From Nitrospinaceae bacterium (lineage in GTDB: Bacteria; Nitrospinota; Nitrospinia; Nitrospinales; Nitrospinaceae), in NCBI GenBank assembly GCA_965223665.1, contig OZ245011.1, positions 448,001 through 512,000 of the forward strand: 64,000 bases of DNA. The letters run 5' to 3'. The notes below the pieces were generated by a model, which did no database searches, was not told where the DNA came from, and worked only from the letters and a program-made list of their open reading frames with translations. The translations under genes were made by a program, and so were the position numbers. Below, in pieces: positions 8,115 to 15,721 of this stretch (position 1 is the first letter of the stretch; each line of letters starts with the position of its first letter).

Positions 8115-8900
8115 ATGAAGAAATTTTTTGCATTTTTTCTCATTTTTGGGTTTGCAGCAATTGTGGGTTTTAACTCATCTGTTTATGCAGATGACTTGAA
8201 AAATTTAATTTTGGGTCGTTTGAGTGAGGATGGGACCACTTTGGATCTTAGTGGAAAGAGAATTAAAACCTCAGGCGCAATTCAACTTGCAAAAATGGAA
8301 GAATTGAAAAATGTGAAAATTTTGCTGCTTCAAGGAAACCAGATAAAACCTAAGGGGATGGAAGCTTTGGCTCAATCACCCTATCTTTCCAAAGTCGAGC
8401 AATTAGATTTGTGGGGAAATTTATTAGGAGACCTGGGGGTTCTGGCTTTAGTTGAATCAAAGCATCTTAACTCATTGAAAATATTAAAGATTTGGAAGAA
8501 TGAAATTAGTGAAGATGGAATCAGGTTATTGGCAGATTCACAACAGTTTCAAAAGTTAACCACTCTACTTTTGAATGACAATTTGATTACTCCCGAGGGA
8601 ATTAAATCTTTATCCCAATCAAAAGGATTTCCTAGTCTCAAAGTTTTAAGTATTTTTAGAAATGAAATTGGAGATGAAGGGGCTAGGCTTTTATCCGATT
8701 CTTCGAATTTCCAAAATTTGACCCACCTTTTTTTAGGCTTAAATAATATTACTGATAAGGGAGCTGTTGCTCTAATAAGTTCAAAAAATTTTCCTAACCT
8801 ACAAGTATTAGATTTAATTCAAAATTCTCTGGGTGAACCTACAATTAAAGCTATGTTCCAATTTAATCGGGACCGAAAAGTCCAAATTGTTATCCGTTAA
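8115..8900 (+). CDS. Exported leucine-rich repeat protein (27-aa RI-like LRRs)
   Basis: Signal peptide MKKFFAFFLIF...VYA; repeats L..L.L..N.I...G...LA.S. Confidence 0.85.
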   Translation: MKKFFAFFLIFGFAAIVGFNSSVYADDLKNLILGRLSEDGTTLDLSGKRIKTSGAIQLAKMEELKNVKILLLQGNQIKPKGMEALAQSPYLSKVEQLDLWGNLLGDLGVLALVESKHLNSLKILKIWKNEISEDGIRLLADSQQFQKLTTLLLNDNLITPEGIKSLSQSKGFPSLKVLSIFRNEIGDEGARLLSDSSNFQNLTHLFLGLNNITDKGAVALISSKNFPNLQVLDLIQNSLGEPTIKAMFQFNRDRKVQIVIR

Positions 8901-8910
8901 CGAGGATCTC

Positions 8911-11100
8911 TTGGCAAATTTGGTTATCAAAAAACAAAAAATAAAGATTAGCCTGTTTTGGGTTGGGTTTGTGTATTTGAAAGTAATTGGAGTTTTTTTA
9001 TTCATTCCCACTTTATTGGTTGCATCTCAGAAAAAATTTCCTTTTCCGAGTATTGGTGATGGAAAAGAAGCTACAGAAGTAATTTTAACCCTGGTAGATG
9101 GAATAGAGGTTGATTCTGAAGGAAATATTTATTTATCTCATCGTTCAAAAAATCGGATTCGAAAAGTAAGTAAAGATGGAATCATTACAACCATTGCGGG
9201 AGATGGGAAGGTTGGCTTTCAAGGAGACGGTGGTCCCGCTTTAAAGGCATCTTTAAACTTTCCTGCCGGATTATGTCGGGATGGCAAGGGTAATTTATTT
9301 GTGGCTGACCGAAATAATCATAGGGTTCGAAAGATTGACTCTCACGGAATTATTTCCACCATAGCTGGAACAGGGGACCCGGATTGGGATGGGGATGATG
9401 GACCTGCAACCGAGGCAAAATTAAATTTCCCTTCGGATGTGGCCTGTGGAAAAGATGGAACTCTTTACATTTCTGACCGGTCTAACAACCGAATTCGTAA
9501 AGTAGATACTAGTGGAATTATTACTACTATTGCGGGTTTAGGGCCTGCAGATTTTGGGGGTGACTTTGGACCTGCTGAGGATGCTTTGCTAAAGTATCCT
9601 TTTGGAATTGAGTTGGATTTGAATGGGAATTTGTATATAGCGGACCGAGGGAATAATCGGATAAGAAAAATTAATTCCAGGGGAATCATTACTACCGTAG
9701 CGGGGGATGGAACCCATTTCTTCTCAGGAGATTATGGGCCAGCCACCCGGGCAAGTTTGGCTTACCCTACTGATGTTGCCTCTGACAAAAAGGGAAATAT
9801 TTTCATTGCAGACCGTAATAATAATCGGATTCGAAAGGTGGATAACCTTGGGATTATTACTACCGTAATGGGTTTAGGGAGGTATGAATATAATGGTGAT
9901 AATGAAATTGCTTCTGAAACCACTTTGCACCTTCCTTTTGCTTTGACGGTAAGCTCTGAGAATGAATTGATTGTAGTTGACCGGAATCATTTTCGAGTCA
10001 GGAGCATGCATTTAAATACCCATTCAGTAACCCCTGTTGCCGGAAACGGTCAGTCACTATTTCGTGGAGATGGAGGCCCAGGCTCTGGAGCCACTCTTGA
10101 ATCTCCATCTGGCATAGTAGTTCAACCCAATGGAACAGTGATATTTGCGGATAAAATGGCTAATCGACTTCGATATATAAACTCTAAAGGATTCATTTTT
10201 ACTTTTGCAGGTAATGGTAAGCAGGGGAATGAGGGAGATGGAGGGCAAGCGCGGTTAGCAGCTTTGTTTCTTCCTGATGGAATGACCAATGACAAAGAAG
10301 GAAATCTATATTTTATTTCCAATCAGGGTAATAGTTATTTGATCAGAAAAATTGACACTAATGGAAAAATAACCAAATTTGCTGGAAACGGGCGACAGGG
10401 ATATTCTGGGGATGGAGGACCGGCTTTACAAGCTTCCTTTGCTGTCATAAAAGATTTAACCACGGATGATTTAGGTAATGTTTATTTAGCTGATTCTATT
10501 AATCGAAATATTCGAAAAATTGATCCTGATGGAATAGTCTCAACAGTTGCATTGGAAAACTGGAAACTGATAAAAGACGAAGAAATTCATCCAAATGGTA
10601 TTGCAATTAATAAGGTTGGAGAAATTTTTATCTCTGATTCTGGAAGCAGTAAGATTCGAAAAATTGATAAAGAGGGTAATGTCACAACTTTTGCCGGAAA
10701 CGGTGATTTTTCAGATTCGGGTGATGGGGGACCAGCACTGGACGCAGGGATTCGGTCTCCAGGAGGTTTGGCATTTTCGCCTAACGGTGATTTATATATT
10801 GCTGAAGAAACGAGCCACCTAATTCGAAAAATAAATAAAGTGGGTATCATAAATCATGTGGCGGGTATAGGCCAAGCAGGATTTAGTGGTGACGGGGGTT
10901 CTGCAAAAGAGGCGATGCTTAAAAGCCCTTATCGTTTGGCCTTTGATGCTCAAGGAAACCTTTATTTCTCTGACCGTGACAATAACCGTATTCGAAAAAT
11001 TGATACGGAAGGTATTATTTCCACTGTTGCTGGAAACCAGAATATTGGATGGCTACAAGATGGTTTGGAAGTTCGGATTACAGTTCATAATTTCCCATGA
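8911..11100 (+). CDS. NHL-repeat protein (12 repeats, probably two 6-bladed propellers) with N-terminal hydrophobic segment
   Basis: 12 copies of ..GNLYIAD..N.RIRKID..G.I.T.AG.G...GDGG.A..A.L..P; start uncertain (TTG 8911 after GAGGA, or GTG 8971). Confidence 0.88.
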   Translation: MANLVIKKQKIKISLFWVGFVYLKVIGVFLFIPTLLVASQKKFPFPSIGDGKEATEVILTLVDGIEVDSEGNIYLSHRSKNRIRKVSKDGIITTIAGDGKVGFQGDGGPALKASLNFPAGLCRDGKGNLFVADRNNHRVRKIDSHGIISTIAGTGDPDWDGDDGPATEAKLNFPSDVACGKDGTLYISDRSNNRIRKVDTSGIITTIAGLGPADFGGDFGPAEDALLKYPFGIELDLNGNLYIADRGNNRIRKINSRGIITTVAGDGTHFFSGDYGPATRASLAYPTDVASDKKGNIFIADRNNNRIRKVDNLGIITTVMGLGRYEYNGDNEIASETTLHLPFALTVSSENELIVVDRNHFRVRSMHLNTHSVTPVAGNGQSLFRGDGGPGSGATLESPSGIVVQPNGTVIFADKMANRLRYINSKGFIFTFAGNGKQGNEGDGGQARLAALFLPDGMTNDKEGNLYFISNQGNSYLIRKIDTNGKITKFAGNGRQGYSGDGGPALQASFAVIKDLTTDDLGNVYLADSINRNIRKIDPDGIVSTVALENWKLIKDEEIHPNGIAINKVGEIFISDSGSSKIRKIDKEGNVTTFAGNGDFSDSGDGGPALDAGIRSPGGLAFSPNGDLYIAEETSHLIRKINKVGIINHVAGIGQAGFSGDGGSAKEAMLKSPYRLAFDAQGNLYFSDRDNNRIRKIDTEGIISTVAGNQNIGWLQDGLEVRITVHNFP

Positions 11101-12071
11101 CATATATACAATTACGCCTTGGATTTTTATTTGGTCTATTTTTCTTTTGTGTGAACTTTGTTTTTGTTTTAGGTTCATGGGGTTTTGATGTGAATTCCAT
11201 GATCCTTAAGGAACTTAAAAAGAGCGGGACTTATTTAAAACTCAATTATAGCGGGATGCTATATGATAAAGGAATAAAACAACTTTCAAAATCAAGGTTA
11301 TTAAGAAAAGTGAAAGTATTAGATTTAAATACCCATGAAATTAGTGATGAAGGGGCAAAAGCTTTAGCTCAATCTAAATATTTAAAAAATTTAAGATCAT
11401 TAAACTTATTTAATAATCATATTAAAGCTCCAGGTGCTAAAGCTTTATTTGAATCTGATGCATATCCTGAATTGTTAGTTTTGAATTTATGGGGAAACGA
11501 AATTGGTGCTGAAGGAGTAAGGGAGTTAGCAAATTCGGATACGATAACCCACCTTGAAATCTTAGATTTAAATGGAAATCAAATAGGAGACAAGGGGTTA
11601 GAATACTTATCCCAATCAAAAAACTTAACGAATTTAAGAGAACTAAAGTTAGGTAACAACAAGATAAGTGATGCCGGTATTAAGGCAATCGCAGATTCCC
11701 CCTTTTTAGACCGTTTAGAAGTGCTTGAGTTGGCTGATAATCAAATTGGCCCCGAAGGAATAAAAGCATTAATAGAATCGGGTCGTTTGAAAAAAATCAG
11801 ATCCCTTCTTTTAAAGAAAAATAAAATAGGAAATGAAGGTTTAAGAGTTATTTCTAAATTCGAAGGCCCTCATTTAATGGAATTAGATATCCAATGGAAT
11901 GAAATAAATAATGAAGGTTTTATTTTTTTGAGCAAAGCTCAAAAATTAAATAACCTTCAATTTTTGCGAACTTGGGGAAATGAAATTGGAGATGGGGGAG
12001 TCAAAGCGCTTCAACAATCCAAATACTTTAAAATTAAAAATCCCATTTATCCTTCAGAATCTAATGAATGA
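11097..12071 (+). CDS. Leucine-rich repeat protein with N-terminal signal/TM segment
   Basis: 27-aa LRRs (LKNLRSLNLFNNHIKAPGAKALFES); ATGA overlap with the NHL stop. Confidence 0.87.
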   Translation: MTYIQLRLGFLFGLFFFCVNFVFVLGSWGFDVNSMILKELKKSGTYLKLNYSGMLYDKGIKQLSKSRLLRKVKVLDLNTHEISDEGAKALAQSKYLKNLRSLNLFNNHIKAPGAKALFESDAYPELLVLNLWGNEIGAEGVRELANSDTITHLEILDLNGNQIGDKGLEYLSQSKNLTNLRELKLGNNKISDAGIKAIADSPFLDRLEVLELADNQIGPEGIKALIESGRLKKIRSLLLKKNKIGNEGLRVISKFEGPHLMELDIQWNEINNEGFIFLSKAQKLNNLQFLRTWGNEIGDGGVKALQQSKYFKIKNPIYPSESNE

Positions 12072-13389
12072 TTTGAACCACAATAATATTTCTCAGATGG
12101 CTAAGGATGCGAAAAATGCTGCATTGGTTCTAGCGGGTTTATCTGTTGAAATCAAGAACACTGCCTTAGAAAATATTGCTTCTACTATTGAAGCTAATAT
12201 GGATTCTTTATTGCAGGCTAATCAAAAGGATTTGGAATATGCTAAAAACGAAAATATTCCAGGTCCTTTGATAGCCAGATTAGCCTTGGATAAACCTAAG
12301 ATTTTGGGAATGGTAAAAGGAATTCGTAGTGTTTCCAAATTGCCTGACCCTGTTGGTAAATCAATGGGAGCCATTAAAATGGATGAAGGGCTTGTATTAC
12401 GAAGGGTTGCTTGTCCTATTGGAGTAATTGGAGCTATTTTTGAGTCACGTCCTGATGCAGTTCCACAAATTTCCTCCCTTTGTTTAAAGTCGGGTAACGC
12501 GGTCATTCTTAAGGGGGGGACTGAAGCTCAAAACTCAAATAAACTTCTAGTGGAATTAATTCGTAAAGGAATAATGAAATCCGGGGAAATTCCCGTTTGT
12601 GTAGTGCAGTTGATTGAAAGTAGGGCCGAGGTTGCGGAAATGCTGAAGCAGGACCAGTATATTAATCTAGTTGTCCCGCGAGGAAGCAACTCTTTTGTTC
12701 GCTATGTTCAAGAAAATACAAAGATTCCTGTGTTAGGTCATTCGGAGGGAATTTGTCATGTATATATTGATGATAAGGCGGAAATAAAAAAAGCAATAGA
12801 TATAACCTTAGATTCTAAGCTCCAATATCCGGCAGCCTGTAATGCTGTAGAGTCTTTACTAATTCATGAAAAAATTGCTTCCGAAGTACTTCCTACCCTG
12901 GCGAATCAATTAAAAGAAAAAGGGGTGGACTTAGTAGGTGATATGAGAGCCTGTAGTTTATTTCCAGAATTAAAACGTGCCAAAGAGGAAGATTGGGACA
13001 CAGAGTACAATGATTTAAAGTTATCGATCAAAATAGTAGAAACTCTGGGAGAAGCTATTAACCATATTAATCTGCATGGTTCTGGACATACAGATACCAT
13101 TGTAACTGAAGATCGAAATAACGCTGAAAACTTCATGAATGAAATTGATTCAGCAAGTGTGATGTGGAATGCTTCCACTCGTTTTGCAGATGGATTTCGG
13201 TTTGGATTGGGTGCTGAAATTGGAATTAGCACTAATAAAACCCATGCTCGTGGCCCCGTAGGATTAGAAGGTTTAGTGATTTACAAATTCAAACTTTATG
13301 GAAATGGACAAGTGGTTAAAGACTACTCAGGGCAAAACGCAAAAGAGTTTCTGCATGAAAAAATTGAAGAAGATGGGTTAGTGGATTGA
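12064..13389 (+). CDS. proA: Gamma-glutamyl phosphate reductase
   Basis: FESRP, LKSGNAVILKGG, PRG, ACNAVE, HGSGHTD, NASTRFADG, HARGPVGL. Confidence 0.97.
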   Translation: MNDLNHNNISQMAKDAKNAALVLAGLSVEIKNTALENIASTIEANMDSLLQANQKDLEYAKNENIPGPLIARLALDKPKILGMVKGIRSVSKLPDPVGKSMGAIKMDEGLVLRRVACPIGVIGAIFESRPDAVPQISSLCLKSGNAVILKGGTEAQNSNKLLVELIRKGIMKSGEIPVCVVQLIESRAEVAEMLKQDQYINLVVPRGSNSFVRYVQENTKIPVLGHSEGICHVYIDDKAEIKKAIDITLDSKLQYPAACNAVESLLIHEKIASEVLPTLANQLKEKGVDLVGDMRACSLFPELKRAKEEDWDTEYNDLKLSIKIVETLGEAINHINLHGSGHTDTIVTEDRNNAENFMNEIDSASVMWNASTRFADGFRFGLGAEIGISTNKTHARGPVGLEGLVIYKFKLYGNGQVVKDYSGQNAKEFLHEKIEEDGLVD

Positions 13390-13456: not shown

Positions 13457-14389
13457 ATGGAATTTCCCCCCGGGAATCGCTCAGATACATCTGAAAGCAA
13501 CTTATATTCTCCAAAAATTTCACCAAAAGTAGGGCAATTCCCTCCCCGTTTTGTAATCACCCCAAAAGTAATAATTATTTTCTTTTTACTTCTAGCCGGA
13601 ACCATTTATACAACCACCCTTACAAATGGTTTTTTATATTCGATGGCATTGTTAGCTATATTGGGCACTCATGAATTTGGCCATTACTGGGCTTGTCGGC
13701 GAAATAATGTGAATGCATCCCTTCCAAATTTTTTACCAGCTCCACCATTTTTCATGATAGGTACATTTGGAGCATTTATTATGATAAAAGAACCTATCCC
13801 AAATCGGAGGGCCTTAATAGAAATAGGTGCCTCGGGACCCATCGCAGGATTTGCTGTTGCCATCCCTGTGTTAATTATAGGGTTGATAAATTCTAAAGTT
13901 TCTGCGGTTCCAGTGGCAGACCCTAATTTGGGAATTTCTTTTGGTTCTTCTTTGATTTTAATTGCGTTTACTAAATTAACATTAGGCGTAAACGCTATGG
14001 CAACCGATATGACAATCCATCTTCATCCTGTTGCTTATGCAGGTTGGGTAGGGATGTTTTTTACTGGTTTAAATTTACTACCGATTGGACAATTAGATGG
14101 AGGACATATAACTTATTCCTTATTTGGGAAAAGACATAAGCTGATAGCTAAGATATTTTTTCTTCTTTTTATTCCTTTAGGTATTTATTGTTGGGGTTGG
14201 TATGTGTGGGCACTTCTAATTTTATTGATGGGATTGAGGCATCCTCCCCTTATGGAAGAATCGATATCTCTTAGTGAGGGGCATAAAAAAATTGGCTATT
14301 TATCAATTATTATTTTCATATTGACTTTTGTCCCAATTCCTATAGGATTTCCGCTCCTTGATTTCTTAAAAGTAATTGGATTATTGTGA
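13457..14389 (+). CDS. Site-2 protease (M50 family)
   Basis: HEFGH, GP, NLLPIGQLDGG motifs; several TM segments. Confidence 0.93.
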   Translation: MEFPPGNRSDTSESNLYSPKISPKVGQFPPRFVITPKVIIIFFLLLAGTIYTTTLTNGFLYSMALLAILGTHEFGHYWACRRNNVNASLPNFLPAPPFFMIGTFGAFIMIKEPIPNRRALIEIGASGPIAGFAVAIPVLIIGLINSKVSAVPVADPNLGISFGSSLILIAFTKLTLGVNAMATDMTIHLHPVAYAGWVGMFFTGLNLLPIGQLDGGHITYSLFGKRHKLIAKIFFLLFIPLGIYCWGWYVWALLILLMGLRHPPLMEESISLSEGHKKIGYLSIIIFILTFVPIPIGFPLLDFLKVIGLL

Positions 14390-14599
14390 TCCAATTAGCT
14401 TTAAGGGCCAGTTTTATATCGGTTTTTCTAGAGCATCCCCGTGATGAGAGATTTCCTAAGTTAAGAAATTACAATAGTTTGCAGTTGCTAAGGGCATAAT
14501 TAAGAAATTAAATTCAAAAATATATTGTAACTATTTGTTTTTTTAAAGAAAAAAAATAGATTTTGTTAAATTTGGTTGGTTCTTTTAATGAAAATCGAG

Positions 14600-14627
14600 T
14601 TGACAAGAAGGCCTATTCCATGATACT
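14600..14627 (+). promoter_or_regulatory. Putative sigma70 promoter
   Basis: TTGACA (14600) -16 bp- GATACT (14622), just upstream of the structured RNA. Confidence 0.55.
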
Positions 14628-14644
14628 TTTTCGATCGATACATT

Positions 14645-14773
14645 TGGGGTGCTGAACTTCAAATGCCTAATTTTTAGGCACTTTATATCGAGAGAGTTTA
14701 AAAAGATAGCCTTGTCTATCTTCTTGGTTGCCGTCAAGACCTCTTTTCGAAAGTTCAGTATCCCATTTGTTTT
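14645..14773 (+). ncRNA. Unassigned structured RNA (sRNA or leader)
   Basis: 15-bp closing stem 14645-14659/14751-14765 with G-U pairs on + strand; internal stem 14688-14696/14741-14750; three hairpins; U-rich tail. Confidence 0.6.
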
Positions 14774-14857
14774 ATGATCCCTCTTTGATAAGCTTACCTT
14801 TTATCCATATCCTGTAATTTTTATTCGAGGTTGTCTGTGTTCTTGCGTATTTTATTA

Positions 14858-15721
14858 ATGGAGATTAACGTTCTCTGGTGGTCTCTAATCGGGTGTTTGG
14901 GAATAAGTTTAACTTTTCCATCTTTTGTGATTTCTCAGGAAATCGAATGTGATTCCTTGAAAGAACTCCCAGGTTTAGAGAAAACAGTTGGTTTAGCTCT
15001 AAAATATTCCTTAAAACCCTCAGAAAAAATGCAAAGGGATAGCTTAGAAGGAAAAAAGGTTATTCTTTTAGTTAAAAAAAATTACTATGAAATTCTTGCC
15101 CGGGAAGAACAGTTGTTAATTTCTGAAGAGGTGCAGGGTCACTTTGAAAAAGCAATTAAAAAGGCAGAAGAAAAATATGAGAATGAGGATGAGGAGGTTA
15201 CTCAATCAGCCATAACAAAATTAAAGCTGGGTTTGTCTGGAGCTAGAAATGATATAAGTGAATTCAATTATAAAAAAGATTTAGCACTAATTAATTTAAG
15301 TAAATTCTTAGGTTGTAAAAGTAAGTTGAGACCTATAAAGAGTAATATTAAATTTAAGCCTGTTGAATTTAAATACACTTCACTTGGTGCGGTTTTAAAG
15401 TCGAATTATGGGAAAAAAGCTATCGGGAAAACTAAAAATAAACCCAAAAAAATTTCATTAGAAGAAACTTTTGAGCTAGAAAGTTTGATAAGTAAAGTAA
15501 AGAGGGCGCGGAGCCAATTAGAATTGGCCAAGGAAAATCGCAAAATGACAAGGGCCTTATTGGTAACTGAAGTCGCTAATTACGATTTTGGAATAGGTAA
15601 TGAAGGCGACTTGTTTGAAGCTTTGATGATTTACACCCGAGTTTTGGTAGGTTATTATCAATCCATTTACGAATTCAACCTAGCAGTTGCTAAATTCGAT
15701 AAAGTATACCAAAGGCCTTAA
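14858..15721 (+). CDS. Short TolC/OEP-like protein
   Basis: Signal peptide; TolC-like helices (LEKTVGLALK, VKKNYYEIL..EEQL, YDFG.G...DL..A, YQSIYEFNLAVAKF); only ~290 aa; start uncertain (14831 or 14858). Confidence 0.65.
   Translation: MEINVLWWSLIGCLGISLTFPSFVISQEIECDSLKELPGLEKTVGLALKYSLKPSEKMQRDSLEGKKVILLVKKNYYEILAREEQLLISEEVQGHFEKAIKKAEEKYENEDEEVTQSAITKLKLGLSGARNDISEFNYKKDLALINLSKFLGCKSKLRPIKSNIKFKPVEFKYTSLGAVLKSNYGKKAIGKTKNKPKKISLEETFELESLISKVKRARSQLELAKENRKMTRALLVTEVANYDFGIGNEGDLFEALMIYTRVLVGYYQSIYEFNLAVAKFDKVYQRP

Follow-up and report, generated by a model that had tools for sequence, protein, structure and literature searches.

A candidate trans-encoded antisense RNA of the Nitrospinales that faces the translation start of a distant lysine-rich gene

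The stretch of DNA analysed here (the window) comprises 64,000 nucleotides (nt) from a Nitrospinaceae bacterium (GenBank assembly GCA_965223665.1, contig OZ245011.1, positions 448,001 to 512,000 of the forward strand). It carries a structured element in a 440-nt gap between a gene for an M50 peptidase upstream (13457-14389, +) and an OEP-like gene (14831-15721, +), dprA and topA downstream. Judged by its sequence features, the element is a real plus-strand RNA gene with its own promoter, whose predicted transcript ends at a closing stem (P1) followed by a run of U residues. It is best explained as a trans-encoded, base-pairing antisense small RNA (sRNA) which probably blocks the translation of a small lysine-rich protein of presumed histone-H1-like character. 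The host genome (G000; 4.35 Mb, 98.6% complete) was analysed together with its relatives in a set of 120 Nitrospinota genomes that includes it, of which 57 are of high quality and whose families are labelled f1 to f5 and so on. Positions refer to the window unless they are prefixed with G000:C1, where C1 is the contig of the host genome. The features of the element are as follows, SD denoting the Shine-Dalgarno sequence and UTR an untranslated region.

14600-14605, plus strand: -35 hexamer TTGACA; TTGACN in 77/77 homologues (57 TTGACA and 2 TTGACT among the 59 parsed)
14621-14629, plus strand: extended -10 element TGaTACTTT (TGnTAnnnT), 15 nt past the -35 hexamer
14636-14773, plus strand: predicted sRNA transcript of ~138 nt, with a 5' end placed by inference ~7 nt past the -10 element
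14646-14772, plus strand: match to the covariance model (G000:C1:462646-462772), 111.5 bits
14645-14659, plus strand: 5' arm of the closing stem P1, 15 base pairs (bp) with the 3' arm (RNAfold)
14751-14765, plus strand: 3' arm of P1, which together with the U-run makes a terminator-like end
14664-14680, plus strand: hairpin P2, TGCCTAA-ttt-TTAGGCA, variable in sequence with the pairing kept
14688-14696, plus strand: 5' strand of P3, SD-like (AAAGAG type) and predicted to mask the anti-SD (RNAfold)
14703-14722, plus strand: hairpin P4, an optional branch inside P3 (RNAfold)
14722-14739, plus strand: hairpin P5 inside P3, with the invariant core CTTGGTTGCC(A/G)TCAAG and an apical loop that is the anti-start-codon
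14741-14750, plus strand: 3' strand of P3, CTCTTTTCGA, the anti-SD, which pairs with mRNA AAAGGAG in 98-100% of 55 cognate pairs
14716-14752, plus strand: stretch antisense to the end of the target 5' UTR, the SD, the AUG and codons 2-6 (BLAST)
14766-14773, plus strand: U-run TTTGTTTT, directly 3' of P1

An earlier note on this DNA had described a stand-alone non-coding RNA with its own promoter and U-tail. All of the parts it listed (the TTGACA, P1 with its 15 bp, the P2 hairpin, P3 with two enclosed hairpins, and the U-run) were found where it had placed them, and the minimum free energy structure given by RNAfold reproduces the fold. The plus strand folds with an energy of -46.8 kcal/mol, compared with -25.0 +/- 3.6 for 200 dinucleotide shuffles (z -6.1; 0/200 as good). 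The minus strand also folds strongly (z -5.5), so that energy alone leaves the strand undecided. The plus strand was chosen because the G-U pairs of P1 would turn into A-C mismatches on the minus strand and because the promoter and the U-run are kept on the plus strand. Many such G-U pairs occur in P1 across the homologues; at two adjacent positions, for example, there are 29 U-G and 23 G-U, respectively. A consensus promoter scan reports TTGACA, 16 nt and GATACT at the element with a score of 10/12. Promoter and U-run were parsed in 59 copies by a first parser, and the remaining 18 copies were read separately (77 in total). The pattern TTGACN-N14-16-TGnTAnnnT lies upstream of 76/77 copies (59/59 and 17/18), and the single exception ends in C rather than T. 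The 9 nt past P1 contain 5-9 T in the 59 parsed homologues, with at least 7 T in 52/59. The predicted length of the sRNA in relatives is about 92-134 nt, with about 105 nt in f2. A look-up of sequencing runs that contain the stretch listed no RNA run; four runs of a single study contain it as contigs.

The fold is also supported by the way in which its copies differ. An alignment of 30 copies (A1) was used to build a covariance model (R1), and 77 copies re-aligned to the model (A3) served for the counting of pairs. Standard pairs occupy 94.6% of the cells in the 77 copies, compared with 84.5 +/- 0.4 for shuffled partners and 45-61% when the 3' partners are slid, and 25 of the 38 pairs have changed on both sides where 15.6 +/- 1.7 would be expected, a number which 0/500 shuffles reach. 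The changes are distributed unevenly over the helices. In P1, 9/14 pairs have changed on both sides while 96.7% of the cells are paired, and all pairs of P2 are compensatory (7/7), a hairpin that is missing in one homologue (G025) and whose plain swap of GCCTAA/TTAGGC for GCCCT/AGGGC can be read from the unaligned sequences. Three of the six modelled pairs of P3 have changed on both sides. P4, which is present in about one third of the homologues (gaps in 51-52 of 76 distinct rows), is compensatory in 6/6 pairs where it is present. P5 has no both-side changes in its five pairs, four of which are invariant. Together with the kept promoter and terminator signals, conservation and covariation strongly favour the earlier proposal of a stand-alone RNA, a statement made at the level of sequence.

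The element is present as a single copy in the host genome (BLAST), which rules out a repeat or mobile element. BLAST finds it in 35/61 relatives, and the covariance model detects it in 84/120 genomes of the phylum, nearly always once, including 48/57 of high quality. All carriers belong to one order (without the host, 17/20 genomes of f1, 5/5 of f4, 5/6 of f3 and 56/70 of f2); the covariance-model search returned 0/18 genomes in the five families outside this order, and a repeat search with laxer filters of the four genomes of the sister-order family f5 found no element. When a 21-nt core pattern was searched with one genome per species, most of the matches listed were from Nitrospina, Nitrospinaceae, Nitrospinales or Nitrospinota, and the remaining ones listed came from scattered unrelated taxa, as expected by chance. 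The promoter and terminator signals lie within the intergenic region and bound its conservation: in all rows of the primary locus except one (to 200), BLAST matches stop at the U-run (query position 179-187), and the spacer between the U-run and the next gene is not conserved in sequence in relatives. The order Aldedh-like, M50, element, OEP-like, DprA is kept in relatives across the order (tblastn). Two genomes have two copies, G009 and G071. Those of G009 (C11:144124-144248 and C38:6178-6302) are both at contig ends, one flanked by Aldedh-like and M50 from the upstream side and the other by OEP-like and DprA from the downstream side, and they are probably a single locus divided in the assembly, not a duplicated one. 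G071 has ~5% contamination.

The decisive feature of the element was absent from the earlier note: its core is antisense to the start of translation of a lysine-rich gene far away in the genome. Apart from the element itself, the host genome contains only one match with E < 0.1, an inverted one of 37 nt (89% identity, E 7.8e-7; BLAST) located 1.98 Mb away, and it corresponds to the SD, the ATG and the first codons of a gene at G000:C1:2446522. A second, inverted match is likewise found by BLAST in most relatives. The invariant part of the sRNA, made up of hairpin P5 and the 3' strand of P3, is antisense to the SD, AUG and first codons of the target. Both loci were retrieved for 59 genomes, which gave 55 parsed cognate pairs; the four unparsed ones are G033, G039 and G051 (target unparsed) and G101 (sRNA unparsed), of which G051 pairs in a separate check. 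An unbroken duplex of 17-29 Watson-Crick or G-U pairs extends over the AUG in 55/55 parsed pairs. Positions -13 to +14 of the mRNA are paired in 75-100% of these, and between -12 and +12 both partners hardly vary. The host itself pairs at 34/35 positions, from -19 to +16. For the seven pairs in which energies were computed, the duplex reaches -52 to -70 kcal/mol, compared with -30 to -37 for mononucleotide-shuffled targets, and the net gain of cofolding over separate folds is -13.6 to -23.7 kcal/mol.

Several signs suggest that this pairing is under selection. The synonymous sites of codons 2-4 are frozen (A in 55/55, C in 54/55 and G in 55/55, respectively), and that of codon 5 varies (G in 12, A in 43). 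The ~28 frozen nt around the start of the target are explained by their complementarity to the sRNA. Variation in the flanks of the duplex is often matched in the other partner: at mRNA position -6 an A is accompanied by U in the sRNA in f2-f4 and a U by A in the sRNA in genus g4, and in f3 the mRNA sequence AAGACA is found with UGUCUU in the sRNA. True partners pair in 1751 cells compared with 1729.7 +/- 7.7 for permuted ones, and 6/2000 permutations score as high, although the sequences are related and their independence is overstated by this test. The complementarity of sRNA and target is conserved and partly co-varying. Nine genomes have only the sRNA, nine only the target and nine neither, and most of these are incomplete metagenome-assembled genomes.

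The target in the host is an open reading frame (ORF) of 66 amino acids (aa), MATKKKAKKKAVKKK..., built of pentapeptide repeats rich in Lys and Ala, and across the order it is a Lys/Ala-rich protein of 40-100 aa starting with MATKKK. Its 5' region was found in 86/120 genomes (f1 18/20, f4 5/5, f3 6/6, f2 54/70 and, weakly, f5 2/4) and in 0/14 genomes of the remaining families. The exact sequence is absent from the protein collection searched. In a protein language-model look-up its neighbours are small, unnamed bacterial proteins rich in Lys, and the designation as histone-H1/Hc2-like is suggested by its composition together with a weak lead from this look-up. The protein family appears to be older than both the sRNA and the frozen start region: a sister-order genome of f5 (G061, C54) has a 30-aa MATKKKAKKK... 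gene and no sRNA, and the start region of this gene is different (ATGGCCACC, with no TCTTG hairpin).

The leader of the target mRNA is itself conserved. The 5' UTR (G000:C1:2446452-2446521) is highly conserved across the order and comprises a TAGAAT/TAAAAT-like -10 element followed by a hairpin, ATATTTGG-GCGCTGAAAC..-CCAAATAT, which probably lies at the very 5' end of the transcript. The loop of this hairpin, GGGCGCUGAA, resembles the 5' arm of P1 in the sRNA, so that the 3' arm of P1 can pair with the loop, and the structure given by duplexfold includes this as a second contact, taken as a lead only. The predicted fold of the mRNA presents the AUG region in the loop of a small hairpin and would leave the SD mostly free. 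At the 5' end of the sRNA, a terminator scan reports an alternative local hairpin, CATTTG...CAAATG (14641-14665), which is a competitor of P1 and mirrors the ATTTGG/CCAAAT arms of the UTR hairpin; the mirroring may be a trace of an origin of the sRNA by duplication of the target 5' region.

These observations are probably best accounted for by a trans-encoded antisense sRNA that blocks translation of the histone-H1-like protein. In the mechanism proposed, the sRNA would be transcribed from its own strong sigma-70-type promoter and end at P1 and the U-run. The GC-rich apical loop of P5 (UGCC, anti-start) would contact the loop of the mRNA hairpin that presents the AUG, from which pairing may spread to give a duplex of ~28-35 bp over the SD, the AUG and codons 2-5, displacing the internal SD-like mask formed by the 5' strand of P3. 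Such an exchange of strands is needed for productive pairing because the antisense stretch is mostly paired internally: in the modelled ensemble of the sRNA only the apex of P5 (UGCC; UUGCCG in the host) is free with p >= 0.9, and the anti-SD is held in P3. Ribosomes would then be excluded and translation blocked; the long duplex is probably a substrate for cleavage, and decay of the mRNA would probably follow. Given its strong consensus promoter, the sRNA is presumably abundant by default, so that the basic protein would be made only when sRNA synthesis drops and its level falls. A search that responded in five control genomes detected no Hfq gene in the host genome, 98.6% complete, which fits a chaperone-independent mechanism of long duplexes or kissing loops. 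Repression as opposed to activation, transcription of the element, a kissing-loop start and a DNA-compacting role of the target are inferred components of this explanation.

A more far-reaching version can be sketched, though as a whole it is tentative and rather doubtful. The sRNA would be a self-masked antisense switch of the Nitrospinales for a histone-H1-like chromatin compactor, derived by inverted duplication of the 5' region of its target. Its 5' half would then mimic the mRNA (the SD-like strand of P3, the P1 arm resembling the UTR loop) and its 3' half would be anti-mRNA. A loop-loop kiss at the AUG would lead to strand exchange, to a block of translation and to the opening of a protective hairpin at the 5' end of the mRNA, and the switch would gate the condensation of the nucleoid, in dormancy or starvation, in the principal nitrite oxidisers of the ocean, having evolved independently of, and in parallel to, the chlamydial pair IhtA/HctA.

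Several observations weigh against the proposed antisense repression. The co-variation between the partners is modest and the sequences are phylogenetically related, and most pairs in f1 are mismatched at mRNA position -6. Co-occurrence has no discriminating power because the two loci occur together in nearly all genomes of the order. Within the fold of the sRNA itself, the antisense stretch is for the most part paired, with only 4-6 nt of loop predicted to be free, and the alignment used to count pairs (A3) was fitted to the model structure and is biased towards it. The conserved position between M50 and OEP-like/dprA is also compatible with a role in cis. The target protein has no match in Pfam, no meaningful match in NCBIfam and none to PF07382 (HC2) or PF07432 (Hc1), and the nearest language-model cluster with any Pfam assignment, which has PF07382 in 17% of its members (score 0.92), is a lead only.

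The position of the element raises the question of a function in cis, and the earlier note had offered an attenuating leader of the TolC-like/dprA/topA run as an alternative to the free-standing RNA. Here P1 and the U-run would terminate transcription conditionally and thereby control read-through into the OEP-like gene, dprA and topA. The element is indeed co-oriented with these genes, lying 57 nt upstream of the OEP-like ORF, and the gene order is kept throughout the order, so that the conserved upstream place stands. Against this, the element has kept a consensus promoter of its own in 76/77 copies, a separate promoter-like site lies between it and the ORF (14785-14813), Rfam contains no riboswitch or leader family that matches it, and a leader would leave unexplained why 28 nt of the element are invariantly antisense to a gene far away. 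A leader is quite unlikely because conservation stops at the U-run, with an unconserved spacer beyond it, and because the core is explained by complementarity to a gene ~2 Mb away. The match to the target could alternatively be read from the minus strand, as a small protein in the form of a truncated MATKKK paralogue (ORF 14585-14737): this strand mimics the SD, the ATG and the first four codons of the target and has a 50-aa ORF with a TTG start. The frame from the ATG-equivalent is open for only 4-64 aa in 59 homologues, however, with lengths that differ by non-multiples of three, and the ATG-equivalent codon itself is ACG in G000 and G001. The P2 and P4 branches come and go with indels, substitutions fit paired helices with G-U on the plus strand, and the kept promoter and U-run serve that strand. 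Coding on the minus strand is extremely unlikely, and was rejected on account of the short, variable frames and the ACG codons.

Closer to antisense repression are two readings that retain the RNA but change its purpose. The element might be a structured RNA whose main function is a different one (for example protein binding, a decoy function, or activation or stabilisation of the target), in which case the complementarity would be a relic of an inverted duplication or be non-repressive. This would be in keeping with an antisense segment that is mostly paired internally and with the loose sense likeness of the 5' half of the sRNA to the mRNA (the P1 5' arm GGGGYGCUGAAC to the UTR loop GGGCGCUGAA, the 5' strand of P3 to the SD), which is too weak for BLAST and gave no such match, as well as with the second duplexfold contact to the 5'-terminal hairpin of the mRNA. 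Such a role is nevertheless unlikely: a relic would have diverged along with its flanks, yet across four families both partners are invariant, pairing over the SD and AUG is the classical geometry of repression, and the SD is mostly free in the predicted mRNA fold, which leaves nothing obvious to activate. A small ORF whose start would lie under a long antisense duplex is likewise reminiscent of type I toxin-antitoxin modules, in which the small basic protein would be harmful and the antisense RNA its antitoxin, and overproduction of histone-like proteins, HctA among them, kills E. coli (PMC3469542). The two loci are, however, 1.98 Mb apart and neither adjacent nor overlapping, both are single-copy, syntenic and present order-wide rather than patchily, and the target is extremely hydrophilic and basic, unlike a membrane peptide. 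A toxin-antitoxin module is very unlikely, and mechanistically it would be a sub-case of the antisense repression favoured here.

Further upstream in the window, positions 8833-12071 encode a 755-aa protein with NHL/beta-propeller repeats and then a 324-aa leucine-rich-repeat protein. The next ORF (11980-13389, with a weak Aldedh match) overlaps the leucine-rich-repeat gene by 92 nt as listed, and its true start therefore probably lies further downstream.

The RNA family is new and previously uncatalogued, while its kind, the base-pairing sRNA, is well known. The earlier note had been unable to match the element to a known family, and this holds: Rfam gives 0 matches at the gathering score in the whole window, and between 14380 and 14860 with E up to 10 it gives only FasX (E 4) and STnc210 (E 5.8), both at chance level. 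There is no Rfam match at the target locus either, nor at 15 sRNA loci and 5 target loci of relatives. Among the literature on Nitrospina small RNAs or histones, judged by the titles listed, no sRNA of the Nitrospinota was found. The element is a well-defined RNA family with a specific, testable target, and a candidate for a new Rfam family. Nitrospinota account for a large share of nitrite oxidation in the sea. Should the target prove to compact DNA, its pairing with the sRNA would be a second and independent example, after IhtA/HctA in Chlamydia, of an sRNA that restrains a histone-like protein, and would point to a regulated nucleoid state in slow-growing chemolithoautotrophs.

Comparison with known RNAs sets the element apart in each case. 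The suggestion of the earlier note that it might be a reduced 6S-like RNA was not upheld. It shares with 6S RNA (RF00013) a similar size class, a promoter of its own and abundant structure, but it lacks the long, interrupted helix and its central bubble and matches no 6S model, and the true, canonical 6S gene of the host is located elsewhere (G000:C1:3955157-3955334, RF00013, 89.7 bits with a cut-off of 46.4). CopA/CopT, RNAI/RNAII and OxyS/fhlA are antisense systems that act through kissing loops, the plasmid systems among them being encoded in cis opposite their target. The predicted folds here likewise have both partners presenting complementary loops, from which long or two-site pairing would follow, whereas the sRNA is encoded ~2 Mb from its target on the chromosome, in contrast to the plasmid systems. 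DsrA is Hfq-dependent, has several targets and acts by short, imperfect pairing. The Nitrospinota element differs in that no Hfq gene was found, only one long genomic match exists and the duplex is far longer. The likeness lies in the control of a nucleoid-associated protein by pairing of an sRNA with its mRNA, as described for the regulation of hns by DsrA in Escherichia coli (PMC5766208).

The closest parallel is found in Chlamydia. IhtA is a trans-acting sRNA of ~105 nt that occludes the hctA start codon with its loop 1, in an interaction of 6-7 nt rich in G/C, and hctA does not vary between species in its first 31 nt (PMC3469542, PMC4355289). The Nitrospinota element resembles IhtA in being a trans-encoded sRNA of ~100 nt with a loop complementary to the AUG region of an mRNA for a small basic histone-like protein. 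G/C pairs flanking the AUG matter in IhtA, and here the loop UGCC/GCCAU faces AUGGCA; the start of the target ORF is frozen in both, here from -12 to +12. The element is nonetheless not an orthologue of IhtA, a candidate identity that was rejected since the carriers of the motif are Nitrospinota and since locus and architecture differ. It is located between M50 and OEP-like/dprA, whereas IhtA lies between sctC and tRNA-Thr in Chlamydiaceae. Its fold is a multibranch structure of 4-5 helices closed by P1 (P2, and the P3 junction with P4 and P5), unlike the ~105 nt and three stem-loops of IhtA. The duplex is 17-29 bp long, unbroken and includes the SD, compared with 6-7 nt and no contact to the SD in IhtA, and the target consists purely of Lys/Ala repeats and lacks the N-terminal domain of Hc1. 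Set apart from IhtA in this way by the published description, the Nitrospinota RNA is in our reading a functional analogue of the IhtA/hctA pair, convergent rather than homologous.

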